DNA of 42,225 nucleotides from the NCBI GenBank assembly GCA_045545255.1, contig JAZQAQ010000102.1, forward strand, positions 1 to 42,225, given 5' to 3'. A program made the translations under genes and the position numbers. Source of the DNA: Eubacteriales bacterium (lineage in GTDB: Bacteria > Bacillota > Clostridia > Oscillospirales > QAKW01). The notes below the pieces were generated by a model, which was not told where the DNA came from, searched no databases, and worked only from the letters and a program-made list of their open reading frames with translations. This document shows, piece by piece, positions 6,684 through 39,724 of this stretch; the stretch's first letter is position 1; each line of letters begins with the position of its first letter.

Positions 6684-6687
6684 GTGT

Positions 6688-8046
6688 ATGAAAACTTTGA
6701 ATTATGATGTAGTTGTGGTAGGCGGAGGTCCGGCAGGAGCCGTCGCCGCCATCGCCTCCGCACGGCAAGGGGCAAAGACCCTCTTGGTGGAGCAAAACGG
6801 CTATCTGGGCGGAATGCTGACGATGGGCGGTGTGGGTCCCCAGATGACCTTCCACGCCGGAGATACCCAGGTGGTTTGCGGCATCCCCGATGAGATCATC
6901 GAGCGGCTGAAGGCGCTGAAACTCTCTCCCGGTCATATGGAGGATTTCGTGGGCTATGCCAGCAGCATTACTCCTTTTGATGCAGAGGGAATGAAATACA
7001 TTTTAGAGACGATGGCGCAGGAGGCGGGAGTACAGCTTTTGTATCATACCGTCTTTACCGGCTGTAAGGTCGAGGACGGAAAGATCGTTTCGGCCGAGCT
7101 TTATTCCAAGGGCGGCTTTTTTGAAGTGACCGCCAAGTCGTTTATCGACTGCTCTGCCGATGCGGATCTGGCAACTGCCGCCGGTGTTTCTGCCGTCTAT
7201 GGGCGGGAGAGTGATCACCTTGCCCAGCCGATGACGATGAATATCAAGGTGGCGGGCGTAGATCGGGAGCGGATGATCGAGTATGTCCGCAGTCATCGGG
7301 ACGATATGCTGGATACCATTCCCTTCGATCGGCTGCACGAGTTACCCAGAGCGGGCATTCAGGGTGCTTATTCTCTGATCCGTAAGGCGAAGGATGCAGG
7401 GGAATTTGATGTGGATCGGGATATGGTTTTGTGCTTTGAGACCAATGAACCCGGTGAGATCATCCTTAATATGTCCCGCATCATTATGAAATCTGCGGTG
7501 GATCCCTTCGATCTCACCGACGCGGAGGTGGAGGGACGCCGTCAGGCGCGGCAGATCCTTGCCTTTATGCAAAAGAATATCCCCGGCTTTGAGCATTGCA
7601 GAATCATCTCCACCGGACCCCATATCGGGATTCGGGAGAGCCGCAAGATCAACGGTGTATATAAACTGACCGCCGAGGATCTGCTGGCGAATAAAATGTT
7701 CCCCGATGCGGTTGCGATGGGTGGCTATCCCATTGATATCCATTCTCCGGACGGGGCCGCGATGAAGCATCAGCATTTAAAACCCGGCAGCTGGTATTCG
7801 GTACCGTATCGGAGCTTGATTGCCGCCGAGGTGGAAAACCTCTTGGTTGCCGGACGGTGCATCAGCGCAACCCACGAGGCTTGCGCCGCTGTTCGCGTCA
7901 CCCCCATTGCAATGGCGATGGGTCAAGCAGTGGGTACCGCCGCCGCTCAAAGTGCCGCAACCGGTCAGCCTGCCAATGCGCTGGATACTGATCAATTGAG
8001 AGCGACCCTCAAGGCAGACGGCGTCTTTTTGGAAGAATACAACTGA
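6688..8046 (+). CDS. FAD-dependent oxidoreductase (FAD_oxidored / GIDA-like fold)
   Basis: N-terminal dinucleotide motif DVVVVGGGPAGAVAA. C-terminal LVAGRCISATHEACAAVRVTPIAMAMGQAVG. Clear paralog of the gene at 18949-20175. Start set at the ATG at 6688 after GAGGAA; the ORF track start is 6673. Confidence 0.85.
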   Translation: MKTLNYDVVVVGGGPAGAVAAIASARQGAKTLLVEQNGYLGGMLTMGGVGPQMTFHAGDTQVVCGIPDEIIERLKALKLSPGHMEDFVGYASSITPFDAEGMKYILETMAQEAGVQLLYHTVFTGCKVEDGKIVSAELYSKGGFFEVTAKSFIDCSADADLATAAGVSAVYGRESDHLAQPMTMNIKVAGVDRERMIEYVRSHRDDMLDTIPFDRLHELPRAGIQGAYSLIRKAKDAGEFDVDRDMVLCFETNEPGEIILNMSRIIMKSAVDPFDLTDAEVEGRRQARQILAFMQKNIPGFEHCRIISTGPHIGIRESRKINGVYKLTAEDLLANKMFPDAVAMGGYPIDIHSPDGAAMKHQHLKPGSWYSVPYRSLIAAEVENLLVAGRCISATHEACAAVRVTPIAMAMGQAVGTAAAQSAATGQPANALDTDQLRATLKADGVFLEEYN

Positions 8047-12408: not shown

Positions 12409-13407
12409 ATGGCTACTTTTGAAGGATATGAGAGAAGAATCGGCAAGATCCAGCCCGTATTGGAGCAGTATGGCTTCGCTACTCTGGATGAAGCCAATGA
12501 GTATTGCTTGTCCAAAGGCATTGATGTTGCCTCTATCGTGAAGGGTGTCCAGCCCATCGCAGTTGAGAATGCCTCCTGGGCTTATACCCTGGGCGCAGCT
12601 ATCGCTCTGAAGAACAACAGCAAGAACGCTGCTGACGCAGCAAGAGATATCGGTGTGGGTCTGCAGGCATTCTGTATCCCCGGCTCCGTTGCCGAGACCA
12701 GAAGCGTAGGTCTGGGTCACGGTAATCTGGCTGCTATGCTGCTGGAAGAAGAGACCAAGTGCTTCTGCTTCCTGGCAGGTCACGAGTCCTTTGCCGCTGC
12801 AGAGGGCGCAATCGGTATCGCCCGTACCGCCAATAAGGTGCGTAAAGAGCCTCTGCAGGTTATCCTGAACGGTCTCGGTAAGGATGCCGCTTATATCATC
12901 TCCAGAATCAACGGCTTCACCTATGTGGAGACCGACTATGATTTCTATACCGGCGAGCTGAAGATCGTCAACTCCACCGCTTATTCCGACGGCGACCGTG
13001 CAAAGGTTCGTTGCTACGGCTCCAATGACGTTCTGGAAGGCGTTGCTATTATGAAGCACGAGCACGTAGACGTTTCCATCACTGGTAACTCCACCAACCC
13101 CACTCGGTTCCAGCATCCCGTTGCAGGTTCCTATAAGAAGTGGTGCTGGGAGAACGGCAAGAAGTACTTCTCCGTCGCTTCCGGCGGTGGTACCGGCCGT
13201 ACCCTGCATCCCGATAATATGGCCGCAGGCCCCGCTTCCTACGGCTTGACCGATACCATGGGTCGTATGCATGGTGATGCTCAGTTCGCAGGCTCCTCCT
13301 CCGTTCCTGCCCACGTCGAAATGATGGGCTTGATCGGTGCCGGTAACAACCCCATGGTTGGTATGACCGTGGCAGTTGCCGTAGCAGTAAGCGAAGCTTT
13401 GAAATAA
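12409..13407 (+). CDS. GGGtGRT protein (conserved family of unknown function)
   Basis: Contains the eponymous motif in SVASGGGTGRTLHPDN. 332 aa. AAGGAAGGAGG RBS and a strong terminator. Confidence 0.85.
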   Translation: MATFEGYERRIGKIQPVLEQYGFATLDEANEYCLSKGIDVASIVKGVQPIAVENASWAYTLGAAIALKNNSKNAADAARDIGVGLQAFCIPGSVAETRSVGLGHGNLAAMLLEEETKCFCFLAGHESFAAAEGAIGIARTANKVRKEPLQVILNGLGKDAAYIISRINGFTYVETDYDFYTGELKIVNSTAYSDGDRAKVRCYGSNDVLEGVAIMKHEHVDVSITGNSTNPTRFQHPVAGSYKKWCWENGKKYFSVASGGGTGRTLHPDNMAAGPASYGLTDTMGRMHGDAQFAGSSSVPAHVEMMGLIGAGNNPMVGMTVAVAVAVSEALK

Positions 13408-13415
13408 GGTGAATC

Positions 13416-13455
13416 AAAACAAAAAGAGTTGCCTTGAGGCAACTCTTTTTGTTTT
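13416..13455 (+). terminator. Strong intrinsic terminator after the GGGtGRT gene
   Basis: 18-bp arms AAAACAAAAAGAGTTGCC / GGCAACTCTTTTTGTTTT around a TTGA loop. Confidence 0.85.
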
Positions 13456-13497
13456 AAAAGTGTTTATAAGTACAAGTTTTGAATTAATAGAGGGAAG

Positions 13498-14082
13498 ATG
13501 TTATCATATTATTTAAGTTTTATTGACGACGAAAACAGTCGCATTAAATTTGAAGAATTATACTATGCATATCGAAAACAAATGATATTGGTTGCAAAAA
13601 AGTATATTCAGAATGATGATGATGCTCAAGATGTGGTTCATGATGTCTTAGTTGATATTGCTGCAAAACATATGTCGTTGATTCAATCTATTAATGATTC
13701 CAGAGATGTAAGAAATTACTTATTAACAGCTACAAAAAATAGAGCGATAAATGAAATAAAAAGAAGAGATAAGTTTGTATCGTTTGAAAAAGTCGAGAGT
13801 GTTGATCTGTCTAAATATTCAACTTTAAATGATTCTGATTTTATTGATTTGTTATGTGAACGATTAGAATATAAATGTGTTTTAGAGGCAATGCTTAAGT
13901 TAGATGAACCGTATAGAGATGTTTTGTATTATCATTTTGTTGTGGAATTAAAAATAGCGGATATTGCAAAACTTCTTGACCGAAAGGTTCAAACGGTAAA
14001 AAAACAACTAGTTAGAGGAAAAAAACAATTGTTAAGCATATTAGCTGTGGAAGGAATTTTTGATAATTATGCCAATGAATAA
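13498..14082 (+). CDS. ECF-type sigma-70 family RNA polymerase sigma factor
   Basis: Region 2-like FEELYYAYRKQMILVAKKYIQNDDDAQDVVHDVLV and a region 4 HTH (LKIADIAKLLDRKVQTVKKQLVRGKKQL). 194 aa. Lies in the AT-rich island. Confidence 0.85.
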   Translation: MLSYYLSFIDDENSRIKFEELYYAYRKQMILVAKKYIQNDDDAQDVVHDVLVDIAAKHMSLIQSINDSRDVRNYLLTATKNRAINEIKRRDKFVSFEKVESVDLSKYSTLNDSDFIDLLCERLEYKCVLEAMLKLDEPYRDVLYYHFVVELKIADIAKLLDRKVQTVKKQLVRGKKQLLSILAVEGIFDNYANE

Positions 14083-14737
14083 AGCGGATTTATTTGATGC
14101 ATTTAGAAAAGCAGCCAGTGTCGAGTTCGAAGATATTCCGCCGGAAATATGTATTGATTATGCTTTTTCAGTAGATTTTGAATGTAAACTAAAAAAACTG
14201 ATAAAAAAAGAAAAACAAAGGTTGTGGCATTTTATTAATACGGGACCTAAACGGGTAATAATCATTATGATGGTATTTGCTTTATTATTTTCCACTGCAT
14301 GTAGCATCCCATCGATTAGAGAACCAATTTGTTCCTTCTTTGTTGAAGTATATAAGGATTTCGTTCATTATGTTTTTGAGGATGGCATTGATTCGATAAA
14401 AACTAAGTATAAACTCATTGCAGTTCCGAGTGGTTTTAGTAAAACGACGGTGTTCGAAACAGAATCCATCATTGTGACCACATATGAAAATTCTAATGGT
14501 GATTATTTAGAGTTTTCTCAAACAATAACCGATGATGTGGATCTTTATTTGGATTCAGAACGTGGAGAACTAACAGTAATTGACACAACAAATGTGAAAT
14601 ACTATCTTTATACACGAGAAAATTTGATACATATAGTTTTTGTGCGAGATTCATATGTTTTTAATTTGACATATCAAGGTGAACTTGAAAAGGAAGTTAT
14701 TTTCGATATTGCAACTTCAATGGCAGCGGTAGAATAA
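14069..14737 (+). CDS. Putative anti-sigma factor, single-pass membrane protein with a DUF4367-like C-terminal domain
   Basis: Overlaps the sigma gene end. Short cytoplasmic N-terminus, TM segment (VIIIMMVFALLFSTA) and an extracytoplasmic domain with TYENSNGDYLEFSQT-type motif. Alternative starts at 14060 and 14075. Confidence 0.7.
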   Translation: MPMNKADLFDAFRKAASVEFEDIPPEICIDYAFSVDFECKLKKLIKKEKQRLWHFINTGPKRVIIIMMVFALLFSTACSIPSIREPICSFFVEVYKDFVHYVFEDGIDSIKTKYKLIAVPSGFSKTTVFETESIIVTTYENSNGDYLEFSQTITDDVDLYLDSERGELTVIDTTNVKYYLYTRENLIHIVFVRDSYVFNLTYQGELEKEVIFDIATSMAAVE

Positions 14738-14788
14738 CTAATGGAGACCTGATTTTGTAATCATGAAAAATCAGGTCTCCATTAGTTA
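14735..14788. terminator. Bidirectional terminator between convergent island genes
   Basis: Perfect 22-bp arms TAACTAATGGAGACCTGATTTT / AAAATCAGGTCTCCATTAGTTA that include both stop codons. Confidence 0.8.
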
Positions 14789-15238
14789 ATATGTTTTTTT
14801 AACTTCGCATGTTATTTTGTCCGCAGAACCGCCGTTTCCATAAATTTCATATACGGCAGTAATTCGGTATGTTCCGGTTGATGGTAGTTGAAAAGTATGA
14901 GAGCCAGTATATGAGAAGTTATATATTGTATCAACCCATTGATTATTAGGTTGATTAATATCAACGCTTTTCCAGAATAATCCTAAAAAGCGTTTCTCGA
15001 TTTTTGTTGTTATGATTGCTTTTGTTGTGGTGTTTTGGATTCCAACATAACGGTTTGATATTGTGATTATTCCGGAACTAGATACAGAAGCAGAAGTTTG
15101 TGCAGAAACTACATTGTTATATAAAGGAGCTACAGTGTGAGAGGAATCAATGGTAGCTGCGTGAGTATATGGCGTTGACATAATGATTAAGAATAAAATC
15201 AAAATGATCGATAAATTTCTTTTTAATATTTTATTCAT
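14786..15238 (-). CDS. Secreted hypothetical protein (150 aa)
   Basis: Signal peptide MNKILKRNLSIILILFLIIMSTPYTHA. Ser/Thr/Asn-rich and beta-rich mature part. No family recognised. Confidence 0.65.
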   Translation of the reverse strand: MNKILKRNLSIILILFLIIMSTPYTHAATIDSSHTVAPLYNNVVSAQTSASVSSSGIITISNRYVGIQNTTTKAIITTKIEKRFLGLFWKSVDINQPNNQWVDTIYNFSYTGSHTFQLPSTGTYRITAVYEIYGNGGSADKITCEVKKTY

Positions 15239-15277
15239 GTTATTCCTTTCATTAATACAAAATTTAAAAATTTTCTT

Positions 15278-16543
15278 TTAAGGAAGAACAGTTAATTCGC
15301 TTAAACAAAGGACTTCGTCTGACCACATGTGTAAAGTGGTTGAAGAACCCCAAATTGTATTTACATATTCGTAGCGAACTTGACCAAATGCTCCCATATA
15401 TGCATACGATTCATCTGTGACATTGCCCTCGTAAATATAATTAGTTCGTACGACTCCACCAGATGGATCATCTTCATAGCCGTCTATATCGGCGGAGTTC
15501 CATCCATAGAGTTTATAAATATTCCAAGAAACAATATTATCGTTATATATGCCCCCTATTTCTATAGTGCGGGTTGTTACTGTTGTACTCGACATAGTTA
15601 GAGGAACACCAAATGTGGTCCATCCATAATAAGGAATATAAGCTGGAAAAGTTAGATTTTGAACAACACTTCCGTTAGAAGGTGTTACCAATCCGGTAGA
15701 ATGTAAATACTTATCATTACTAATAATTTCAATCCGGTAGGTGTCTGGGTAGACGGTGAGAGATCCGGTGGTGAAACCATGTACATTTTTTAAATATGAT
15801 TTAAACTCACTACAATGGGAATTTACTTTTGCATAGACGGACATAGTATTCTGATTTTCAATCTCGTTAGCGTGGTAAATAGCGATTGTGGCAGCATCAT
15901 AACCAGAAGCATCGATTGTATCATAACCCTGTAAACGTATTGTTGCATCTACTGCCGTAGACATAACGGAATCATTTGATTGGGTTTCGTTTGATGGAAC
16001 TGACCCTTTTTTTGCTTGAACATTAAGTGCTGAGAGCTTGGAAATGTTAGAGGAAAACTCACCAAAGTAAATGATTTGAGGAGCTATTTTTCCAGCACAA
16101 CCGATGGTTAAAACAGAAAATGTTTCTGACTTTGAAATATAGTTGAAATCGAGTGTTAGTTGCTCAATTTTATTATTGTAGGATATCACGGCGTCTAAGA
16201 CACCGACATATCCGTTGGTATCATATGAATCTATTTTTCCAGTAGCAGGTACACTAATTTGTTTTTCTGGAAAAGTAATAGTAATTGATGCTTTTGTAGC
16301 ACAAGTTGATTTGAGATTCTGAATACTTACCGAGATTGATGAAACTGTATAATTTCTTTTTTCATTTTCGGTCGATGAAGAGTATTGTAGTGTGTTAGTT
16401 TGTGATTTATTTAATTGATTATTGGGGGATGAGGTGAATTGAATCATATTTGCTGTTTCCAAAGTTGTGAAAGAACAAAGATTTAGGTTTGATAATGTGA
16501 TGACTATTATCAATAGGGAAAGAATGAGGCGCTTTTTCTTCAT
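15278..16543 (-). CDS. Secreted hypothetical protein (about 421 aa)
   Basis: Start set at MKKKRLILSLLIIVITLS (signal peptide); the ORF track start is 16594. No family recognised. AT-rich codon usage like its neighbours. Confidence 0.65.
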   Translation of the reverse strand: MKKKRLILSLLIIVITLSNLNLCSFTTLETANMIQFTSSPNNQLNKSQTNTLQYSSSTENEKRNYTVSSISVSIQNLKSTCATKASITITFPEKQISVPATGKIDSYDTNGYVGVLDAVISYNNKIEQLTLDFNYISKSETFSVLTIGCAGKIAPQIIYFGEFSSNISKLSALNVQAKKGSVPSNETQSNDSVMSTAVDATIRLQGYDTIDASGYDAATIAIYHANEIENQNTMSVYAKVNSHCSEFKSYLKNVHGFTTGSLTVYPDTYRIEIISNDKYLHSTGLVTPSNGSVVQNLTFPAYIPYYGWTTFGVPLTMSSTTVTTRTIEIGGIYNDNIVSWNIYKLYGWNSADIDGYEDDPSGGVVRTNYIYEGNVTDESYAYMGAFGQVRYEYVNTIWGSSTTLHMWSDEVLCLSELTVLP

Positions 16544-16598
16544 GATTATTTTCCTTTCTTTTCTAATTAATAGTGATAATGTTTTTATAATCAACAGT

Positions 16599-17216
16599 TC
16601 ATATGTTATCCTCCTCCTTTTTTCTTAAAATGTAATATGAGGTGCATATTAGGGCGATCAAGGGATAGATATTGAAAAGAAAACTTTGTAAATAACTTGT
16701 TAATTTATATACAATGAATGGGACTGTCATTTGGGAAAGTATGCTTGAAAAGAATTCTAATGCAGTTGAGTAGGTGAATAGCAGAATGCCTATAATTATC
16801 CATATTGAGGAAAAATATTTCAATTTAATTATTTTGAAGTAATGGCCGGTAAAAAAAATAATTAAGAATAAGAGAACTAATTGGATGATAAATGAACTTT
16901 TTATCTCGCCAGATATCCAAAAAAGAGTGAGAGGTAATATGATACCACCAAAGATCAAGGCTATTTTATAAAATAAATAGAGCCAATCTTTGGTGTTGGC
17001 TTTATTGGTTTTGCAAAAGACCAAAAGAACAAGAAGAGAGGCACTTATACGAATGGCTAGTTGGAAAGAATCATAGATTATCACATTAAAATGGCTGGTT
17101 GTATTGCCAAAGAATAAATTGATAGTAAATGGACGAATAGTCCCAATAATTAATAAGTTGATTAATGAGTATATTGTTATGGCTTTCCAAAAAGATTTTA
17201 AGGAATTCATATTCAT
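16599..17216 (-). CDS. Polytopic membrane protein (205 aa), function unknown
   Basis: About 6 hydrophobic segments and no catalytic motif recognised (no AgrB-type or CPBP-type residues). First gene of the minus-strand island operon. Confidence 0.6.
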   Translation of the reverse strand: MNMNSLKSFWKAITIYSLINLLIIGTIRPFTINLFFGNTTSHFNVIIYDSFQLAIRISASLLVLLVFCKTNKANTKDWLYLFYKIALIFGGIILPLTLFWISGEIKSSFIIQLVLLFLIIFFTGHYFKIIKLKYFSSIWIIIGILLFTYSTALEFFSSILSQMTVPFIVYKLTSYLQSFLFNIYPLIALICTSYYILRKKEEDNI

Positions 17217-17340
17217 ATAATAAAGATCCTTGATTAAGAATTTGGTGTTTCTATTAATATAACAACGATAGAAACAAAAAGAGGACAGAAAAAAAGAATT
17301 TTTTTGTATGCGGTGGATTTTAAATAAAAAATCACCAATA

Positions 17341-17388
17341 AATCCTATGATTAGTATGACTGTGGCTGTATCTGAGGCTCTGAAGTAA
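17341..17388 (+). pseudogene. Diverged duplicate of the last ~15 codons of a GGGtGRT gene
   Basis: Translates to NPMISMTVAVSEALK*. The intact gene ends NPMVGMTVAVAVAVSEALK* (13348-13407). The copy is AT-richer and has no gene body upstream. Confidence 0.65.
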
Positions 17389-17442
17389 GGTTAGACCGCT
17401 GAAATCAGCGCAGACCGACTAAAATAAAGAAAGAACCTGCTT

Positions 17443-17797
17443 GTGGCACCCTCCGTAAGGAAGGTGCCACAGTTATATTCGCCTAACGGCGAGTGATATT
17501 GCTACGCAGTTATATTATGCTACGCATAGTGATATTGTCCTTCGGACAGTTAAATGGGCGAATATAATATCACTGAAACCGTTAGGTTTCAATATCACTT
17601 TTGCTGCAAGGCAAAAATATCACTGCAAACGATAGTTTGCAATATCACTTTACCTGCCGAGAAAAATACTCTTTATTTTCGGCGAGTATTTACCTTTCTC
17701 AAAGTACGTAACCCACTATGACACTTTCACAATACAAAAGTATCATTTCTCTTATAAAAGGAAAAAGGAGACAACTTCTTTACGAAGTGTCTCCTTT
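17443..17797 (+). mobile_element. ~355-bp non-coding structured element inserted into a terminator loop (copy A of a repeat family; MITE/PATE-like)
   Basis: Its flanks, 17429-17442 and 17798-17814, reconstitute the intact terminator seen at 22172-22201. Subterminal hairpins at 17442-17471 and 17767-17794. No ORF with an RBS. Homologous in layout and tail sequence to 23112-23451. Confidence 0.55.
17566..17649 (+). repeat. Four AATATCACT motifs at an exact 25-nt period, separated by three different 16-nt hairpins
   Basis: Motif starts at 17566, 17591, 17616 and 17641. Spacers are GAAACC-GTTA-GGTTTC, TTTGC-TGCAAG-GCAAA and GCAAAC-GATA-GTTTGC. Inverted motif copies (AGTGATATT / AGTTATATT) lie at 17471, 17492, 17508 and 17528. 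Confidence 0.85.
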
Positions 17798-17820
17798 CGG
17801 CAGGTTCTTTTTTTGTGTCT

Positions 17821-17878
17821 TCGCGTCGGGATGACCGCTCGGCGTATCATATACGCCTTCGGGACCGTCCCGACGCGA
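17821..17878. repeat. Nested palindrome
   Basis: Outer 11-bp arms TCGCGTCGGGA / TCCCGACGCGA enclose an inner hairpin GGCGTAT-CAT-ATACGCC. GACCGCTC (17833-17840) is also complementary to GAGCGGTC (17893-17900). Confidence 0.6.
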
Positions 17879-17972
17879 TCTGCATCTGATTTGAGCGGTC
17901 TGCGGGAGGAATATCGGAGAAAACGAAAATCTCATCCCATTTGAAAGGTTTGTAAAAACCAAATGAATTAGA

Positions 17973-17999
17973 GACCCCTGAAAAGGGGTCCCTTTTTAT
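17973..17999. terminator. Terminator hairpin at the end of the AraC-family gene
   Basis: GACCCCT-GAAA-AGGGGTC lies next to the stop at 17996-17998. There is a T-run on the plus side and T-rich sequence on the minus side. Confidence 0.55.
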
Positions 18000-18820
18000 T
18001 TCTCATGCTGTTTTCGGTATTCAGTGGGGGTGGTGTGGTAGGTGGCTTTAAAGACCTTATTAAAATAGGTGACGTTTTTAAAGCCTACTTCCGTCGAAAT
18101 TTCGATGATGCTGTGGGAGGTAGAAACAAGCAGTTTTTCTGCCTGTTTCAGTCGTTCCGAGCGGATATAGTCGTTTAGGGAAACACCGGTTTCTTTTTTG
18201 AAAAGTCGGCAAAGGTAGCGAGGATTATAATAAAAGGTCTCTACAAGGTTTTTGGCATACAACTCAAAGTCAAGATTTTCGCGGATATAGTTTTTGATAT
18301 TACGGATCAGGGGTTTTTCGTTCGTCTGAGCATCAGGAAAGTTTTGAAGCAAAAAAAGGATGTAGTTTTCGATGGTTTGGGAGACGCTTCGGCACAGTTC
18401 GGGGGAGAAATCCTGCTCCAAGCTATCTAAAGGGAGCGGCTGTCCCTTTGCCTTTTTTCTCATTTTGCGAAGGGAGTCTTCTCCGTCCGAAATATTGCCG
18501 ATAAAGATGATGGCGGCAACATCGTCCTCTATCAGAACGGGGTGGGTGTACTCATAGATGCCGTTGACACAATGTGCGCCGAAGGCTGTTTTGGTTTTCA
18601 TGGTCTTTTTGATAACGAAGTTTCGGCACCGCAAACATCTTGAGTAGGATTGACTGCTGAGTCTTTTGAAACTGTCACAGATAGGGGTGGCATGAATTTG
18701 GTGATCGGACGGCAGCTTGCAGGCGGTGTTGCCGTAATCCTTGAAAAACAAAACCACAATGTGAAGGTTTGTTTTGTATTCGATCTGTTGGATGAGTTGA
18801 TATAAAAGAGAAACGGACAT
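17996..18820 (-). CDS. AraC-family transcriptional regulator with a PocR-like N-terminal sensor domain
   Basis: C-terminal double HTH (YAKNLVETFYYNPRYLCRLFKKETGVSLNDYIRSERLKQAEKLL...FKNVTYFNKVFKATYHTTPTEYR). Cys-rich N-terminal half. Start set at the ATG at 18820 after GGAG; a TTG lies at 18832. Confidence 0.85.
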   Translation of the reverse strand: MSVSLLYQLIQQIEYKTNLHIVVLFFKDYGNTACKLPSDHQIHATPICDSFKRLSSQSYSRCLRCRNFVIKKTMKTKTAFGAHCVNGIYEYTHPVLIEDDVAAIIFIGNISDGEDSLRKMRKKAKGQPLPLDSLEQDFSPELCRSVSQTIENYILFLLQNFPDAQTNEKPLIRNIKNYIRENLDFELYAKNLVETFYYNPRYLCRLFKKETGVSLNDYIRSERLKQAEKLLVSTSHSIIEISTEVGFKNVTYFNKVFKATYHTTPTEYRKQHEK

Positions 18821-18948
18821 CTTGAACTCCAAAGCACATATTTTTGAAAATTATAGTATAAATGTTTCATTTTTTCAAGTTTTAAAACGATTATTATAAG
18901 AATTTGATTGGGTATGGTGTTACAATAAATAAAAAAGGAGGCGTTTTT

Positions 18949-20175
18949 ATGAATAAGTATGATTTGATCGTTGTCGGTGGCGGAATTTCCGGCATCTGCG
19001 CCGCGGTAGCGGCGGCACGGCAGGAACTTTCGGTGTTACTGCTTGAGGAGTCCGGTGTTCTCGGCGGTGCCATGTCCAACAGCTTGGTGTATCCCTTTAT
19101 GCGTTTTCGGACGCGTGGAGAGGGAGCGAAGCTTCTTTCGGCGGGGTTATTTTCTGAAATTCAAAAACGCCATGCGACTTACGGAGACTCCTCTTGGGAG
19201 ACCTATAAGCTGATCTTCGATGAAATGATGGAGGAGGCGGGGGTGGCCGTCCTGCTCCATGCCACGGTGATGGAGGCCGTCTGTGAGGGGCGGCAGGTCG
19301 TCGGAGTTAAGGCGGCGACCAAAAGCGGTGTTCTGGACTTCTATGCCGATTTCTTTATCGATGCCAGCGGCGACGGTGCCTTGATCGCTCTGACGGGGTG
19401 CGATTATCAGCTGGGCAGAGAAAGCGACGGCTACTGCCAGCCCATGACCACCTGCTTTCGGTTGAGCAACGTGGATATTCCGCAGTTTTTGAAGGAAAAG
19501 GAGACCCTGCAACAGAAGTATAAGGAATACAGAGAAAAGGGTCTCATTCAAAATCCACGTGAAAATATCTTGACTTTTAACGGGATCGGGGACGGCATTT
19601 TGCATTTCAACACCACCCGTATCGTGATGGAGGATCCCACCGATGCCTTTGGGATCAGCCGTGCGGAGATGGGCGCCCGTAAGCAGATCAAGGAGATGTT
19701 TGATTTCATGCGGGAGAATGCAGAGAGCTGTAAAGACGCAAACCTCGTTTACGTGGCAAATCACATCGGTATCCGTGAGAGCCGCAAGCTGAAGGGGGTT
19801 CATATTCTGACCGAGGAAGAGCTGGTTGCCTGCAAGGATTTTGAGGATACCATCGCCCTCGGCTGTTATGATATCGATATCCATAACCCCACCGGAACGG
19901 GAACTTATATCTATAAATTCCAAGGGGATGATTATTACAAGATTCCCTATCGCTGTTTGTTGCCCAAGGAATACGATAATATGCTGGTCGCGGGACGATG
20001 TCTTTCCGCCGATCACGCCGCTCATTCTTCGGTGCGTATCATTCCCATCTGCGCCAATATGGGCGAGGCGGCGGGTATTGCGGCGGCAGTCTGCAAAAAG
20101 GACGGCACCAATGCCCATACCGTAGACGTCCAAAAGGTACGCAATACCTTGCTTGAGAAGGGAGCAATATTATGA
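18949..20175 (+). CDS. FAD-dependent oxidoreductase, paralog of 6688-8046
   Basis: YDLIVVGGGISGICAA dinucleotide motif. Shares IGIRESRK, DIDIH and LVAGRC..(S/A)..H......VR..P blocks with the first copy. AGGAGG RBS before the ATG at 18949. Confidence 0.85.
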   Translation: MNKYDLIVVGGGISGICAAVAAARQELSVLLLEESGVLGGAMSNSLVYPFMRFRTRGEGAKLLSAGLFSEIQKRHATYGDSSWETYKLIFDEMMEEAGVAVLLHATVMEAVCEGRQVVGVKAATKSGVLDFYADFFIDASGDGALIALTGCDYQLGRESDGYCQPMTTCFRLSNVDIPQFLKEKETLQQKYKEYREKGLIQNPRENILTFNGIGDGILHFNTTRIVMEDPTDAFGISRAEMGARKQIKEMFDFMRENAESCKDANLVYVANHIGIRESRKLKGVHILTEEELVACKDFEDTIALGCYDIDIHNPTGTGTYIYKFQGDDYYKIPYRCLLPKEYDNMLVAGRCLSADHAAHSSVRIIPICANMGEAAGIAAAVCKKDGTNAHTVDVQKVRNTLLEKGAIL

Positions 20176-22169
20176 CGGGGATCAACGAAGGGGAGGAAGC
20201 GGAGTTCCTGGTTCCGGTCGGCCTTACGGGAAACTGGCAGACACCGGAGGATGTTGCCGCTACTGTTACACAGCAGCACGAACGGTACGGGTTGAAACGG
20301 TTTGCGCTGGCCGCGCCCGGCTTGGCATGGAGATACAAAGGATATCCTGACGTAACGGTCTATGAGCAGTTTGCCGAAATCTTTTGTCGGGTACGTGAAT
20401 TGTTAAAGGGTCGGGATCTGGCTCTCGGTTGGTGGAGCTCTGTCAATTTGAAGTCCGGCAGACACCCGGATATTCAGCCCGTTGTAAGGGGGGACGGAGA
20501 AGAGCATCCCTTTGCCAACTGCCCCTCCGATGACGAATTTAAGGAACGTCACGCGAAAAATATAGCTACGTTCTGTCGGATCGCAAGGCCGGATTTTATC
20601 ATTATTGAGGATGATTACTGTATCAGTGCGGCGGCAGGCAAATACGGCTGTTTTTGCAAAAACCATCTGGCTGAATTTGAAAAACGTGTGGGAAGACGTT
20701 ATGAGCGGGAAGAATTGGTGCGCATTTTCGGAAAAAAGGAGCAGGACTCCATTGAGCTTCTGAAACGGTACAAGGAAATGCTCAAGGACACTATGGTGGA
20801 TTTTTCTGTTCAGATCAGACGGGAATTGGACAAGCAGACACCGGAAATCCCGATCTGTCTTGCCCAAGCAGGAACCATTGACAACGACGGAAATGCAACA
20901 GAGGCGGTTTGTCGGGCACTGGCAGGCAAGAATCACCGTCCTCTTTGTCGACTTTACGGTGCCTATTACAATGGCGGCGAGATCAAAAATGTTCCCGAAC
21001 TGCTGTACCACGCCGTTTACTGTAAGCAGCATATCAGTGAGGATTTTGGGCTTTATCATGAATCGGATACCTATCCGCATACGCGCTTTTTCACCTCGGC
21101 AAGAATGATGAAAACTTATTTGGGAATTACCTATTCTCAGGGGCTTATCGGTTCTGTTTTTCAGACCCAGCAGCATTTGGACGATCCCGGTGAGGAAACT
21201 GCCTACGGTGAAATGCTGAAAAGCGAGCGTGCTCGCCTGACGGAGCTGATCAAAACGGTATCGGGCTGTACGCCCATGGGGGTGGAGATTCCTTATGATC
21301 CGTTTTATAATTTTATGGAGGAAAGCAGAAATCCGCTTTGGGTAAGACCGGTGACCGCCTTTGGTATCCCCTTTGTCACCACCCCTGCCAAAACGGCATT
21401 TCTGGATGAGGTGAGCGCAAAGTATCTCGGCGATGATGAACTGAAACGCTATCTGTCCGGCAATCTCTTTTTAGACGGGGACGCGGCCTATCACTTGACA
21501 CAACGGGGATACGGCAGATATCTGGGCGTTTCGGTCGGGGAGAACGCCGTTACGGACGAGATGAAGTACGATTTTGCGGCAAAGGAAGTGATTCGGCCGC
21601 CCTTTGACCAATATTCCGTGGGTAAAAATATGCCTGCGGCACATACCTATGCAAAGGGGAAAAATGGCATCCCCAGAAGTATGACCCACCTCGAAGAAAA
21701 GACAGAGATCATCAGCGAGGTTCTTTCCTGCGAAGGAATCCCGTTTACCGTCGGGATGACACGCTTTGAAAACGAGCTGGGCGGTCGGGTCGTGGTGATG
21801 GGGATGACCTTGAGAGGGAACGGCTCGCAATCGCTGTTCAATTACCGCCGTATGAGGCTGTTTGATCAACTGCTTTTATGGGGAAATGCGGAAATTCCCT
21901 TTGTGAAAAACGAGCCGTATCTCCATCTGATCGCCAATAAGGGCGGAAGCGATAAGGATTTTTCCTATCAGATGACGGTGATCAATCTGGCGGAGGATAC
22001 GGTGAGCGGTGCAGAAATATATCTGCCGGAATGTATGCGGAATAAAGAAATTCTGTATCTTACCGCTGACGGATGCTGGGAAAAGGCGGATATTGTCGAA
22101 ACCAAGGATGGGATGATGATCAAGCATCCGTTGGAAATCTGTGAACCGTTGTATCTAACATTCAGATAG
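20172..22169 (+). CDS. Uncharacterised 665-aa cytoplasmic protein (possibly glycoside-hydrolase-like TIM barrel; unverified)
   Basis: ATGA start/stop overlap with the FAD gene. No signal peptide. Not similar to the 660-aa partner of the other FAD gene. Confidence 0.7.
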   Translation: MTGINEGEEAEFLVPVGLTGNWQTPEDVAATVTQQHERYGLKRFALAAPGLAWRYKGYPDVTVYEQFAEIFCRVRELLKGRDLALGWWSSVNLKSGRHPDIQPVVRGDGEEHPFANCPSDDEFKERHAKNIATFCRIARPDFIIIEDDYCISAAAGKYGCFCKNHLAEFEKRVGRRYEREELVRIFGKKEQDSIELLKRYKEMLKDTMVDFSVQIRRELDKQTPEIPICLAQAGTIDNDGNATEAVCRALAGKNHRPLCRLYGAYYNGGEIKNVPELLYHAVYCKQHISEDFGLYHESDTYPHTRFFTSARMMKTYLGITYSQGLIGSVFQTQQHLDDPGEETAYGEMLKSERARLTELIKTVSGCTPMGVEIPYDPFYNFMEESRNPLWVRPVTAFGIPFVTTPAKTAFLDEVSAKYLGDDELKRYLSGNLFLDGDAAYHLTQRGYGRYLGVSVGENAVTDEMKYDFAAKEVIRPPFDQYSVGKNMPAAHTYAKGKNGIPRSMTHLEEKTEIISEVLSCEGIPFTVGMTRFENELGGRVVVMGMTLRGNGSQSLFNYRRMRLFDQLLLWGNAEIPFVKNEPYLHLIANKGGSDKDFSYQMTVINLAEDTVSGAEIYLPECMRNKEILYLTADGCWEKADIVETKDGMMIKHPLEICEPLYLTFR

Positions 22170-22174
22170 AGGAA

Positions 22175-22201
22175 AGAACCTGCTTCGGCAGGTTCTTTTT
22201 T
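22175..22201 (+). terminator. Intrinsic terminator (the intact version of the sequence split at 17.44/17.80 kb)
   Basis: AGAACCTGC-TTCG-GCAGGTTCT followed by TTTTT. Confidence 0.85.
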
Positions 22202-22238
22202 ATATCCCATCATACAATCACCGCTACGGCATCAGCAT

Positions 22239-22658
22239 CCATACATTGATATCCATCAATGTATGGATGCTGTCCGAACGTCAATAATTAGAGGAGCATT
22301 GATGCACATCAATGCCTTGCGATGACTATACATTGATGAGCACCGATGCTTGGCGTTGACATATACATTGATCAGTATCAATGCCTTGAGATAACTATAC
22401 ATTGATGAGAATCAATGTCTTGATATAATTATATATTGATGAGTATCAATGCGTTGCGATAGTTATACATTGATGAGTATCGATGCTTGGTGTTGACATA
22501 TGCATTGATGAGTATCAATGTTTGGCGTTAGCATATACATTGATCAACATTGATGCTTGGTGTTGACAAATACATTGATGAGCATCGATGCCCTGCGATA
22601 GCTATACATTGATGGAGATCGATGTTGGGTTTGGCATATGTATTGATGAGAAGCGAGG
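22239..22658. repeat. Array of 12 CATTGAT-N4-ATCAATG palindromes; ten form a head-to-tail run with a 34-35 bp period
   Basis: Core starts at 22244, 22297, 22331, 22366, 22400, 22434, 22468, 22503, 22538, 22573, 22607 and 22641 (the last is degenerate). There are two spacer variants. The first copy, 22239-22266, is a perfect 12+4+12 palindrome. Confidence 0.9.
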
Positions 22659-22715
22659 TTCTGATGGGGTATTTTAGAGGGGAGGAGTATGTAGATTTAA
22701 AGCATCGTGCAGATA

Positions 22716-22744
22716 TTGACAAATTCACAAAAAATGTTATCATT
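22716..22744 (+). promoter_or_regulatory. Extended -10 promoter of the ArsR-family gene
   Basis: TTGACA (22716-22721), a 16-nt spacer, then TG-T-TATCAT (22735-22743). Confidence 0.65.
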
Positions 22745-22770
22745 TATACATTGATGATCATCAATGTATA
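22745..22770. promoter_or_regulatory. Perfect 26-bp palindromic operator TATACATTGAT-GATC-ATCAATGTATA
   Basis: Lies between the -10 element and the GGAGGG RBS of the wHTH regulator gene. Has the same core as the upstream array. Confidence 0.7.
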
Positions 22771-22788: not shown

Positions 22789-23058
22789 ATGAGCGATCAG
22801 GAGTTGATCCAATGTTTGAAAGTAATGGCGGATCCGATACGCTATGCTATTTTAGATATGCTTCGAGAGCGACCGGCGCACTCTTATGAGCTTTTAGCCG
22901 GATTATCCATTACACAACCGACACTTTCTCATCATATGAAGGTATTGCGAGAATCCGGGTTGGTAACCGTTATACAGGAACCGCGCTGGAAAACCTATGC
23001 ATTAAATGAAATAAAACTCGGCACACTCATCCGACAATTAGAAGAATTCTTGAAGTGA
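22789..23058 (+). CDS. ArsR/SmtB-family winged-helix transcriptional regulator (89 aa), no obvious metal-sensing site
   Basis: ADPIRYAILDML...ELLAGLSITQPTLSHHMKVLRESGLV is the ArsR HTH signature. There is only one Cys (C9), no ELCVCDL motif and no C-terminal His/Asp/Glu cluster. Confidence 0.85.
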   Translation: MSDQELIQCLKVMADPIRYAILDMLRERPAHSYELLAGLSITQPTLSHHMKVLRESGLVTVIQEPRWKTYALNEIKLGTLIRQLEEFLK

Positions 23059-23111: not shown

Positions 23112-23451
23112 TCTTTAGCATTGTGTCCCGAAGGACACAATGCAGCGATATAAATCCCTTGCAGGATTTGCGATATGGCAAAGCTGCGATATGTCCTTTT
23201 TGCGCGATATGTGCCTTACGGCACGGGATAGGGGATTTATATCATATCGCATTTACCGATCGGTAAATATATCGTTTTTTCGTCAGAAAAAATATCGCAT
23301 TGCGAAGCAATATATCGCCAAAATAATTACTACCTGAAAAAGAGCTTTGTTTTCTCTTCTTCGGGTAGTTTTGTTTTACACTATTACAAGCAGGAATTTT
23401 GTATGCCAAAATTTCACGTTCTTTATAAAAAACTGACCTTAAGTAATCTAC
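23112..23451 (+). repeat. Copy B1 (~340 bp) of the structured non-coding element family
   Basis: Left hairpin CATTGTGTCC-CGAA-GGACACAATG (23119-23142). GCGATAT motifs at 23145, 23170, 23186 and 23204. Inverted ATATCG(C) motifs at 23244, 23269, 23292 and 23312, each separated by a different hairpin. The tail resembles 17650-17766. Boundaries are approximate. Confidence 0.7.
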
Positions 23452-23573
23452 TCTTTAGCATTGTGTCCCCAAGGACACAATGCAGCGATATAAATCCCTT
23501 GCAGGATTTGCAATATAGCAAAGCTGCGATATGTGCCTTGCGGCACGGGAAAGTGGATTTATATCATATCGCA
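23452..23573 (+). repeat. Copy B2, a truncated tandem copy of the same element
   Basis: Near-identical to B1 over the left hairpin and the motif array, apart from an 18-nt deletion. Homology stops at ATATCGCA (23573). Confidence 0.75.
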
Positions 23574-23633: not shown

Positions 23634-24176
23634 ATGCATTTTTTAGAGCGGTTGATAACGGAAAACGGCATCGCCTGGGTGGTCGGTCAGGGCTTTGGCA
23701 TACTGGCGATCATCCTGGGATTTATTTCCTATCAAGTGCGGACGCAGCGTCAAATTTTGTTTATGCAAAGTATGGTCGCGGTGGTGTTTAGCATACATTA
23801 CTTTTTGATCGGGGCTTATTCCGGTATGGCGATGAACGCCTTGAATATCGCTCGAAATATTTGCTACGATTATCGGGTGAGAAAGGGCATCTGCAGTAAG
23901 CTGATTCCCATCGGCTTTGTTGTACTGCAGGCGGCGATCTGCAGCTTGACTTGGGAAGCGTGGTATTCGGTATTTGTGATGCTGGGGATTTGCATCAATA
24001 GCTATTGTATGTCTTTTTCAGATCCGCAAAACGTGCGAAAAAGCATTCTTGTGACCTCGCCGATGGTGCTGACCTACGATGCATTTGCCCGTTCGGTGGG
24101 CGGATTTATTTACGAAGCGGTGGCGCTTGCTTCTGCAATGATTGGAATTTTGAGAAATAGGGGGAAGAAAAAATGA
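23634..24176 (+). CDS. YgjV-family inner membrane protein
   Basis: 180-aa protein with about 5-6 TM segments, and the pattern GQGFGILAIILGFISYQVRTQRQIL...IHYFLIGAYSGMAMNALNIARN is typical of YgjV. GAGAAGAGG RBS. Confidence 0.7.
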   Translation: MHFLERLITENGIAWVVGQGFGILAIILGFISYQVRTQRQILFMQSMVAVVFSIHYFLIGAYSGMAMNALNIARNICYDYRVRKGICSKLIPIGFVVLQAAICSLTWEAWYSVFVMLGICINSYCMSFSDPQNVRKSILVTSPMVLTYDAFARSVGGFIYEAVALASAMIGILRNRGKKK

Positions 24177-38309: not shown

Positions 38310-39042
38310 CACTTTGATTCAGGTCAAGGACCTGAAGGTGCATTATAAAAACGGCGCAATCAAAGCGCTGGACGGCGTGGACATTGATATCAAGCGCGGT
38401 GAGGTCGTGGTGGTCATCGGTCCTTCCGGCAGCGGTAAATCCACCCTGCTCCGCAGTCTCAATCTGCTGGAGACTCCCACTGCGGGCGAAGTGATTTTCG
38501 ACGGTGTGGATATCAACAGTAAAAAGGTCAATATCAATCTCCATCGGCAAAAGATGGGAATGGTTTTTCAGCATTTTAATCTCTTCCCCCATATGACCAT
38601 CCTGAAGAATATGACCATCGCACCTATGCGGCTGAAGAAAATGACGAAAGCCGATGCAGAAGCCAAGGCGATGGAACTTTTGGAGCGGGTCGGCCTTGCT
38701 GATCGCGCCAAGGCGTATCCCAGCCAGCTCTCCGGCGGGCAAAAGCAGCGTGTTGCCATTGTCCGTGCCCTTTGTATGGATCCGGACGTGATGCTCTTTG
38801 ATGAGCCTACCTCTGCGCTGGACCCCGAAATGGTCGGCGAGGTGCTGGACGTTATGAAGCATCTGGCAAAAGAGGGAATGACGATGGTGGTGGTGACCCA
38901 CGAGATGGGCTTTGCACGTGAGGTGGGCAGCCGTGTCGTCTTTATGGACGGCGGTAAGCTGATCGAGCAGGGAACCCCCGATGAGATCTTCACCAATCCG
39001 CAAAGTCCTCGTTTGCAGGACTTTTTGGCAAAAGTTCTTTAA
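38299..39042 (+). CDS. Polar amino-acid ABC transporter ATP-binding protein (GlnQ-like)
   Basis: Walker [10 protein letters not shown], signature LSGGQKQR, Walker [15 protein letters not shown] start overlapping the permease end. Confidence 0.9.
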
Positions 39043-39053
39043 AAAAATTCAAA

Positions 39054-39079
39054 ACGGGGGTTGACAAGTCAACCCCCGT
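39054..39079. repeat. Perfect palindrome ACGGGGGTTGAC-AA-GTCAACCCCCGT
   Basis: 12-bp arms. The T-run lies on the minus-strand side only. Overlaps the -35 (TTGACA at 39061) of a likely tRNA promoter, with TAGAAT at 39084. Confidence 0.6.
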
Positions 39080-39100
39080 GTAGTAGAATAGAGTGGCTGT

Positions 39101-39177
39101 GGAGGCATAGCTCAGCTGGTTAGAGTACTTGCTTGACATGCAAGGGGTCACTGGTTCGATTCCAGTTGTCTCCACCA
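39101..39177 (+). tRNA. tRNA-Val (anticodon GAC), CCA encoded
   Basis: Cloverleaf read by hand. Acceptor GGAGGCA/TGTCTCC, D arm GCTC..GAGT, anticodon stem CTTGC/GCAAG with loop TTGACAT, T arm ACTGG-TTCGATT-CCAGT, then ACCA. Confidence 0.9.
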
Positions 39178-39182
39178 TAAAT

Positions 39183-39215
39183 AAAAGGACTACTTCGGTA
39201 GTCCTTTTATTTTTT
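39183..39215. terminator. Terminator after the tRNA, usable on both strands
   Basis: AAAAGGACTAC-TTCG-GTAGTCCTTTT followed by ATTTTTT. Confidence 0.8.
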
Positions 39216-39724
39216 AAGATTACAGCCACCAACCCCAAAATTGCCAGCAACAGCGCGGGCAGAGCCACGGCGGTGCCGTAGCGGGTGAATTTGCCGAAGG
39301 AGAGTCGGATATGATGGGCGCGGAGTAATTGCATCCACATAATCCCTGCCAGTGCCCCGATGGGGGTGAAAAAGGCACCTAAATTGGAGCCGATGATGCT
39401 GGCATAGAGGGCGGCTGTTTGCGTAACGCCGGTGAGATCGGCGGTGATGCCCGAAAAGAGGACGCTCATAGGGATATTGTTCATCAGATTGGCGGCGAGG
39501 AAAGAGGTGGTTCCATAACCCCAGCTGGCAGAGAGCGGGGATAAAAGCTCGGCGATCTGCTTGGTGACACCGTATTTTTCCAGTGCCAGCACCAGCGCGC
39601 CGAAAAGCGGTGGCAGCCAGTAAATGCTGATCTGTTCGTGCCCGATTTTGATCGATGGCTTAGTGAAAACCAGAGCGATCAGACCGAGGCAGGTTAATAT
39701 ACATACAATGGTTACAAAAATCAT
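39215..39724 (-). pseudogene. Remnant of an ArsB/NhaD-type (ion transporter superfamily) permease with an internal deletion and no native stop
   Basis: The first ~48 aa resemble a permease N-terminus, which then joins directly to a C-terminal-type region (NLMNNIPMSVLF...IGSNLGAFFTPIGALAGIMW). About 170 aa remain against about 400+ expected. The frame stays open through the terminator and the antisense tRNA to 38990. Confidence 0.5.

Follow-up and report, generated by a model that had tools for sequence, protein, structure and literature searches.

Contig JAZQAQ010000102.1 of the Eubacteriales bacterium assembly GCA_045545255.1 (42,225 nucleotides; this whole stretch is called the window here) carries a gene for an 89-amino-acid (aa) winged-helix protein of the ArsR/SmtB family (22789..23058, plus strand; assigned from profile matches and alignment), preceded by a stack of palindromes that share their core with the predicted operator of the gene. 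These palindromes occupy a non-coding stretch of about 580 bases between the 89-aa gene and a terminator-like hairpin that ends a 665-aa gene. The hairpin, followed by a T-run (GAACCTGCttcgGCAGGTTCTTTTTT, 22165..22206, plus strand), forms the upstream edge of the module and overlaps the stop codon of the 665-aa gene, which ends at 22169; it was seen as an inverted repeat and is absent from the list of a consensus terminator scan. The distal-most site is an 18+4+18 palindrome with 100% complementarity (22233..22272, inverted-repeat search) enclosing CATTGAT-atcc-ATCAATG at 22244-22261 without mismatch; the initial annotation of this DNA, a first reading of the bare sequence, had rightly called it a perfect palindrome and had underestimated its size as 12+4+12. 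The second site, CATTGAT-gcac-ATCAATG (22297..22314, pattern scan and unit layout), is the first unit with an array-type spacer behind it, and is followed by a head-to-tail array of ten units (22327..22658), recovered by Tandem Repeats Finder, the pattern scan, the unit layout and repeat families, with cores at 22331, 22366, 22400, 22434, 22468, 22503, 22538, 22573, 22607 and 22641. Neighbouring units are spaced 34-35 bp apart with two spacer variants interspersed, just as first described, and Tandem Repeats Finder reports 22297-22614 with a period of 34, 9.2 copies and 75% matches. At up to two mismatches, CATTGAT-N4-ATCAATG has 12 matches, all at 22244-22766 and none elsewhere in the 42 kb, against a chance expectation of 0.32; none of 100 dinucleotide shuffles attained 12. 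The copy at 22641 retains the left half only (TATTGAT gaga AGCGAGG), and the thirteen stacked copies originally announced are thus 12 clear copies and one half-decayed copy, as counted in a short-read contig.

A gap of 108 bp separates the array from a perfect 26-bp palindrome, TATACATTGATGATCATCAATGTATA, composed of TATACATTGAT-GATC-ATCAATGTATA (22745..22770; inverted repeat and pattern scan). Upstream of this palindrome, a promoter on the plus strand (22716..22743, promoter scan) consists of TTGACA (22716-22721), a 16-nucleotide (nt) spacer and the extended -10 element TGtTATCAT, with the -10 hexamer at 22738-22743; with 11 of 12 matches and the TG, it is the top promoter match of the region. 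The palindrome starts one base past the -10 hexamer and therefore probably covers the predicted transcription start, its final base overlaps the ribosome-binding site (RBS) AGGAGG, and the ATG follows at 22789. The position between an extended -10 and the RBS stands as first described, and so does the placement in a lower-GC islet, the GC content being 0.41 at 22-24 kb and about 0.50-0.55 on both sides.

By its sequence, the 89-aa protein is predicted to have the ArsR/SmtB fold and to be a sensor-less derivative of arsenic repressors. It matches the Pfam profiles HTH_5 (1.5e-13) and HTH_20 (3.3e-13) and the NCBIfam profile HTH_metalloreg (6e-19, 67.6 bits against a cut-off of 55), and its relatives in the PDB include HlyU, BigR, ArsR, NmtR and CzrA. 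The recognition helix, ITQPTLSHHMKVL, is invariant among orthologues and nearly identical in the aligned homologues, which carry a CxC motif and share the helix QPT(L/V)SHH(M/L)K. The alpha3 CxC that binds As(III) in the nearest arsenic-type relatives (CAC, CVC) is replaced by H-S-Y in seven of seven orthologues, which argues that the protein is not a metal sensor, the view already taken from its single Cys and lack of a metal site; an alpha5 His/Asp/Glu ligand set is likewise not visible in the alignment. The sole Cys, Cys9, is kept across the clade and may allow a thiol switch. Identity to the closest named relatives does not exceed 48%; of these, P0006, P0013 and P0027 were aligned and have the CxC, and several of the closest adjoin ars genes. 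Among 5.8 billion protein clusters, only four others reach at least 65% identity, and these come from gut metagenomes or metagenome-assembled genomes (MAGs) labelled Eubacteriales or Clostridia.

The dyad also occurs at promoters of more distant members of the subfamily. A pattern of two units was scanned against 185,579 genomes, a collection that does not include the window's own genome; the scan detects array-type matches only, and the MAGs that it hit are fragmentary. Its one match outside the clade lies in Arthrobacter cheniae, where the divergent ACR3/arsR-arsC promoter region contains two perfect CG-type dyads, GCATCGATGGTCATCGATGC and TACATCGATGAGCATCGATGT. These two perfect CATCGATG-NN-CATCGATG dyads lie 32 bp apart (NZ_QZVT01000001; locus L011, 2700-2770), resemble a native operator pair, that of a canonical ArsR with a CVC motif, and would serve as a useful positive control for binding assays. 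In Paraeggerthella, the arsP-trx-arsR promoter has TATTGACATATATCAATG over the -35 with two mismatches, and the arsR-arsP-trx-arsC promoter of locus L028 has CATTGACAATCATCTATG, also over the -35 and with two mismatches. In all, the site is found at up to two mismatches in three of six promoters of more distant ArsR homologues, all three with ars genes alongside; by an analytical estimate, chance would give about 0.003 per 200-bp region. These dyads in ars promoters lend independent comparative support to binding of the palindrome by the 89-aa protein, which we regard as likely, and together with the conserved promoter layout described below they agree with the initial proposal of autorepression: the 26-bp palindrome is very probably the operator of the regulator and the gene autorepressed. 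The distant ArsRs (at most 48% identical) have no array in two of two cases whose upstream DNA was read directly, and three others show no clustered sites upstream.

Orthologues with upstream sequence, 65-100% identical at the protein level, were found in about five lineages of uncultured gut Clostridia, and all of them keep the promoter, the operator layout and the upstream array; the co-occurrence of orthologue and array that was first suggested as a check thus holds throughout. In an alignment of six loci with proteins 63-100% identical, TTGAC(A/G) and a TG-extended -10 are followed 3-5 nt on by the perfect dyad. The operator is always perfect, with sequence and position kept across orthologues, and the array lies 70-140 bp upstream of promoter and operator in every orthologous locus. 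The arrays themselves differ: the window has 11-12 units, L001 has 8 with a period of about 49 bp, L002 has 7 with a period of 31 bp, L003 has 3 and L007+L019 at least 10 with a period of about 31 bp, and L010 and L018 have 13 arranged in a 117-bp three-unit higher-order repeat. Among strains with identical protein, fully resolved contigs have 7, 7, 8, 8, 8 and 13 units and two cut contigs at least 7 and at least 12; as these come from different samples, the copy number is polymorphic and the arrays are not the artefact of one assembly. About 17 contigs, obtained independently from different samples and with different assemblers, share the architecture as such, so that the assembly artefact allowed for at the outset does not account for its kind. 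Copy number (3-13), spacer sequence and period turn over between lineages, spacers and periods being lineage-specific, and the periods across loci are 30-31, 34-36, 46-51 and 138+36 bp. The genes upstream of the array differ between lineages (no homology was found between those of the window and L001), and array and gene remain together down to 63-65% protein identity. Judged from the loci compared, no locus other than that of the regulator gene seems to have retained an array throughout the lineages. Operator flanks are TATA/TATA in clade A and CA/TG in clade B, where array units have CA on one flank and TA on the opposite one, and no clean signal of co-evolution between operator and array flanks was obtained. 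The units are tandem and intergenic, recur at several loci and differ in copy number between strains, as in interspersed variable-number tandem repeats of the MIRU type. A coding function of the array can be ruled out, since the periods (30-31, 34-35 and 48-50 bp) are not consistently divisible by three and open reading frames (ORFs) placed in arrays by gene callers are not conserved between loci. A CRISPR array is ruled out by spacers that are conserved within each array, and no cas genes were present in the annotated flanks examined; on both points the initial annotation was right. An Rfam search over the array returned nothing at gathering thresholds, the only matches being chance-level microRNA and small RNA families (E about 0.1-1).

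The 3' side of the regulator gene, compared between loci, appears to be a variable or insertion-prone spot. In three lineages small membrane proteins are encoded nearby, namely a 125-aa protein in L002 (891-1268), whose gene separates operator and regulator, and, downstream of the regulator, DUF3784 in L030 (10567-10875) and YgjV in the window (23634-24176); as they share no family, they were rejected as an SdpI-like partner. L036 (1444-2181) and L038 (1087-1824) have two TnpV genes in place of DUF3784 next to an identical regulator. Just downstream of the ArsR gene of the window, two direct repeats of about 140 nt (23112-23251 and 23452-23573) are 94% identical and rich in GCGATAT/ATATCGC; they match the Gut-1 RNA family (RF01706) below threshold, with 32.6 and 24.5 bits against a gathering score of 50. 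A genuine member of this family, with 57.7 bits, is found at 17470-17560, and Gut-1 had no match in the eleven related loci scanned.

Conservation within the units is restricted to the core. A logo of 138 units from 20 loci reads ACATYGATG-NN-CATCRATGT, with 1.3-2.0 bits at positions 0-8 and 11-19 except for the Y/R pair (about 1.0 bit), and most flanking and central columns stay below 0.5 bit (one flank column has 0.51). As only this 20-bp core is conserved, selection seems to act on a dyad of the size of an ArsR dimer site. A sample of 269 kb of clade DNA contains 243 clustered sites and six isolated ones, all of the latter with two mismatches (2.6 expected by chance). Within this biased sample, the motif counts point to the absence of an ordinary single-operator regulon, the predicted targets being the arrays and the regulator's own promoter. 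The Y/R pair occurs as T-A (48), C-G (43), T-G (28) and C-A (18). Its imperfect forms are polarised: read in the regulator's sense, the regulator-proximal arrays (window, L001, L002, L003, L010, L018, L030-L037) have 67 T-G and no C-A, whereas the remote arrays described below (L005-L023) show the reverse polarity, with 18 C-A and 4 T-G when read in the direction of the downstream gene. A leading/lagging mutation bias as the source of this polarity was ruled out, because the sense-strand GC skew is positive in all but three loci, in both classes. The window, L001 and L010 each have a perfect operator and a perfect distal-most unit. When folded as RNA, the plus strand reaches -121 kcal/mol and the other strand -92 kcal/mol, with z near -4.9 for both.

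Arrays are also found away from the regulator. Apart from Arthrobacter, the genome scan matched 18 contigs from only four MAGs, JAZUNB, JAZNGR, JAZSBU and JAFSHF, each of which has one regulator orthologue beside one array and a further two or three remote arrays, as listed after joining contig ends that plainly belong together. Hence, the initial description of operators stacked upstream of one regulator is correct for the locus and too narrow for the four genomes, where the additional arrays have no regulator nearby. One remote array lies between deoC-deoD and deoB-cdd, with 6-7 units in one MAG (L012) and at least 18 in another (L023+L020). Another follows dnaJ and a 221-aa gene and possibly leads on to an ABC solute-binding gene (14 units in L008, 4 in L006 and 6 in L017). 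A third follows prfB, a terminator and a consensus promoter and precedes the RBS of a lipoprotein-like gene (5 to at least 14 units; L013 and L009+L021). The two remaining kinds are built of 174-bp higher-order units between a 107-aa gene and recD2 (L014 and L015+L005) and of two units before a GH26-SLH gene (L016). Co-directional genes flank each of the seven array loci that are fully resolved, the last unit being 0-75 nt from the downstream start, or 70-140 nt where the regulator's own promoter intervenes. For instance, in L013 a TTGACA-N17-TATAAT consensus promoter is followed by the array as a 5' leader running straight into the RBS, and in L012 the array occupies the deoD-deoB gap of an apparent operon. 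The 174-bp repeat (two dyads and a 138-nt spacer; L014 3100-3600, L015 100-340, L016 100-330) includes an apparent recD2 5' end (ATGGACAATTATATCAAAATGCGTTGCATT...), and as the copy before the GH26-SLH gene shares the recD2-derived flank of L014, the arrays have spread by segmental duplication at least once. In clade B, a cytidine deaminase gene directly follows the regulator and another array precedes deoB-cdd, a gene context that hints at a link to nucleoside catabolism. Scans with the two-unit pattern gave three unrelated matches only in JGI metagenomes and none in viral contigs.

Taken together, these observations suggest that the locus is probably part of a natural satellite of protein-bound DNA rather than a simple gene switch; among the three options of the initial annotation, its new kind of protein-bound satellite fits best. 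We propose a lineage-specific interspersed satellite built from the operator of a repressor, an account that, with titration and roadblock effects included, we consider about evenly balanced between right and wrong. The 89-aa protein would be a dimeric autorepressor that derives from As(III)-sensing ArsRs, has lost the sensor and occupies every unit. Since all strong sites of the sampled DNA lie in arrays, we infer that arrays, rather than single promoters, are its main targets. As the gene adjoins an array and would be switched off only once its own operator is filled, synthesis should track the number of sites, a titration-coupled autoregulation following the logic of iteron and datA-type control loci; the regulator sink envisaged at first would survive as one part of the mechanism, with titration deduced from the layout. 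Coated arrays could act as multi-dimer obstacles or insulators to RNA polymerase arriving from an upstream gene or promoter, heritable changes in copy number could tune the strength of the block, and the arrays themselves would originate by slippage or unequal exchange. The occurrence of the satellite without the regulator, which had been put forward as evidence against the original idea, is indeed observed at the remote arrays, and is taken here to alter the interpretation and not the binding. A more committed version, a dedicated protein-coated satellite in which a sensor-less ArsR-type protein and dispersed operator arrays form polar barriers to transcription and possibly replication, with synthesis matched to site number and heritable tuning, seems rather unlikely to us.

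Several observations weigh against the proposed satellite of bound operators. A sensor-less repressor would impose a constitutive block, the benefit of which inside a deo operon is unclear. Many array units are imperfect, with T-G or C-A at the Y/R pair, and the operator is always perfect, so that simple autorepression would fill the operator first and the arrays may stay partly empty. Apart from the ArsR dimer, no obvious oligomerisation module can be recognised in the protein, which makes cooperative coating an assumption, and the periods share no common helical phase and therefore imply no single higher-order geometry. The Y/R pair covaries (T-A 48 versus 37 expected, C-G 43 versus 32 expected), as is predicted by a hairpin model and not by a dimer model. 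Finally, the fast turnover of array copy number and location is also compatible with a nearly neutral satellite. Such a nearly neutral or selfish interspersed repeat, similar to REP/BIME or MIRU elements, would have the operator as its seed or as one more copy, with binding incidental and no selected function. The 7-13 units among strains with identical protein, the lineage-specific positions of remote arrays, the turnover of spacers and periods, the many arrays that end contigs, as repeats do, and the passive segmental duplication that carried a recD2 5' piece to a second locus are all expected on this account. It does not readily explain why the regulator-adjacent array is present in every lineage down to 63-65% identity despite completely replaced units, why conservation is confined to a 20-bp dyad with sharp boundaries, or why no strong sites lie outside arrays in the 269 kb. 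Moreover, two hairpin palindromes would do equally well, and the units invariably show the same one, CATTGATG..CATCAATG, an indication of sequence-specific recognition. We consider a nearly neutral or selfish satellite somewhat unlikely.

Alternatively, the units could act as hairpins in single-stranded nucleic acid, be it as RNA leaders or intra-operon hairpin arrays that affect mRNA stability, processing or attenuation, or as single-stranded DNA, with the protein secondary or without a role at the remote arrays. The covariation of the Y/R pair, the transcribed positions of remote arrays (the 5' leader of L013, the intra-operon array of L012), the U-G-compatible T-G pairs of the regulator-proximal arrays in the sense of the gene (67, with no C-A) and the more stable fold of the plus-strand RNA (-121 versus -92 kcal/mol) are in line with such a role. 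However, the reversed polarity at the remote arrays (18 C-A, 4 T-G) means that sense transcripts there would carry mismatches, no Rfam family is matched, and the window array is preceded by a terminator, with no strong promoter match upstream in the scan. The stems are 7-9 bp and A+T-rich, and amplification of whole units can also yield the covariation. We regard the hairpin account as improbable. Very improbable, in our view, is a function at the level of the chromosome, either as centromere-like or organising sites (ParB/parS, TubR/tubC or AspA-like) or as polar fork or transcription barriers of the RTP/Ter type. General precedents exist: TubR and AspA are small ArsR-like winged-helix proteins that act as centromere binders, the autoregulated winged-helix dimer RTP of B. 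subtilis is encoded next to two of the dispersed, polar sites that it binds, and long operator arrays bound by repressor can stall replication forks. The consistent polarity of the units, differing between regulator-proximal and remote arrays, would also suit such a function. Against it, no ParA, ParM or TubZ-like gene, and hence no NTPase partner, was found among the scanned ORFs of the window or in the 20-kb flanks of the gene in L030, no plasmid or phage relatives were found, the periods lack a common helical phase, and the arrays abut ordinary gene starts. Searches of plasmid and phage proteins gave only distant homologues (less than 45% identical), the best plasmid homologue inspected lying within an arsenic-resistance region, and the context of the window is one of chromosomal housekeeping genes (coaX, metH, MTHFR, RNase J). 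Within the DNA searched, the locus thus shows neither the NTPase operon nor the autonomous replicon that mark a partition centromere, and no support was found, in viral contigs either, for the ParR/parC or TubR/tubC comparison made initially. In addition, the cumulative GC skew climbs steadily across the window, which places the locus away from a skew switch.

Other features of the window lie further from the array. A low-GC island at 13000-18900 (31-42% versus about 50-55%), which may have been horizontally acquired, contains an ECF-type sigma factor gene (13498-14082), a DUF4367 protein gene (14060-14737), several genes for membrane or unknown proteins without Pfam match (14786-17216), an AraC/PocR regulator gene (17996-18832) and the Gut-1 RNA. 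At 4701-8046 and 18904-22169, a PF12831 FAD-dependent oxidoreductase gene adjoins a gene for a protein of about 660 aa, in opposite gene order; the two proteins of about 660 aa have no Pfam or NCBIfam match and no mutual homology by BLASTP. A tRNA-Val(GAC) gene (39101-39177, plus strand) is contained in the 3' part of an ORF on the minus strand (38990-39724). The match of this ORF to the ArsB permease model involves its middle and, of the model, the C-terminal fifth only; it may represent a truncated permease gene or an ORF extended too far.

Bacterial transcription factors usually work through one or a few operators, and long operator arrays are familiar mainly as engineered tools or as the iteron, centromere or titration loci of replicons. 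The locus suggests that the site of a chromosomal transcription factor has turned into an evolving interspersed satellite that stays permanently tied to the gene of its presumed binder. If binding is confirmed, it would offer a natural case of titration-coupled autoregulation, a natural roadblock or insulator made of multi-site arrays in which to ask how such arrays coexist with replication, and a test of how regulatory sites can give rise to families of interspersed repeats. The protein and its array could also become a compact, orthogonal pair for synthetic biology, and the variable copy number a marker for strain typing in an uncultured gut lineage.

With respect to known systems, the 89-aa protein shares its fold and family with ArsR/SmtB autorepressors that use a 12-2-12-type operator (As(III)-sensing ArsR, CzrA, SmtB, HlyU, BigR, SdpR), and has in common with arsenic-type ArsRs a near-identical recognition helix and a dimer-size dyad over its own promoter. 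In contrast to these, the sensor is lost (CxC to H-S-Y), the operon has no resistance genes, and instead of one or two operators, several loci carry arrays with copy numbers from 3 to at least 18. In architecture, the closest counterparts are iteron and titration loci along with centromere arrays, and in genomic behaviour the REP/BIME and MIRU-type repeats. Iteron and titration loci, such as P1 incA/incC with repA, the RctB sites of V. cholerae and DnaA-datA in E. coli, likewise have the gene of an autoregulated DNA-binding protein flanked by an array of its own sites, and here too additional arrays could titrate the protein, with the number of sites setting the demand. Unlike iterons, however, the units described here are palindromic dimer sites and not direct repeats, they lie before housekeeping genes without origin features, and the protein does not initiate replication. 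The REP/BIME elements of enterobacteria and the MIRU-type repeats of mycobacteria are also short, imperfect palindromic or tandem extragenic units between co-directional genes, with conserved linkers, copy-number polymorphism and lineage specificity, and RAYT genes flanked by REPs recall the presumed binding-protein gene flanked by repeats. REP families number hundreds of copies, whereas 3-4 arrays with about 35-45 units were detected per MAG; the units have no GTAG-type signature, their core is the operator of a transcription factor family, and no RAYT or transposase gene was seen in the array flanks examined, the part of the genomes that was searched. Centromere arrays (TubR/tubC, ParR/parC, AspA) similarly place tandem sites just upstream of an autoregulated gene for a DNA-binding protein of about 90 aa, but the present arrays are chromosomal, have no NTPase, vary in period and occur several times beside unrelated genes. 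A precedent for natural dispersed operator arrays tied to an ArsR was not found in the literature, although absence from the searchable literature is no proof. Synthetic decoy or operator arrays can sequester a factor and, when bound, block polymerases (PMC3322331, PMC7826281, PMC8599769). Like lacO and tetO arrays, the arrays at this locus consist of many tandem repressor sites; those are engineered, whereas these would form a natural and evolving equivalent that has a protein dedicated to it. Hence, although its parts resemble known kinds, what appears to be new on this comparison is a natural, dispersed tandem satellite of a transcription factor operator, with the gene of the factor tied to one of the arrays.

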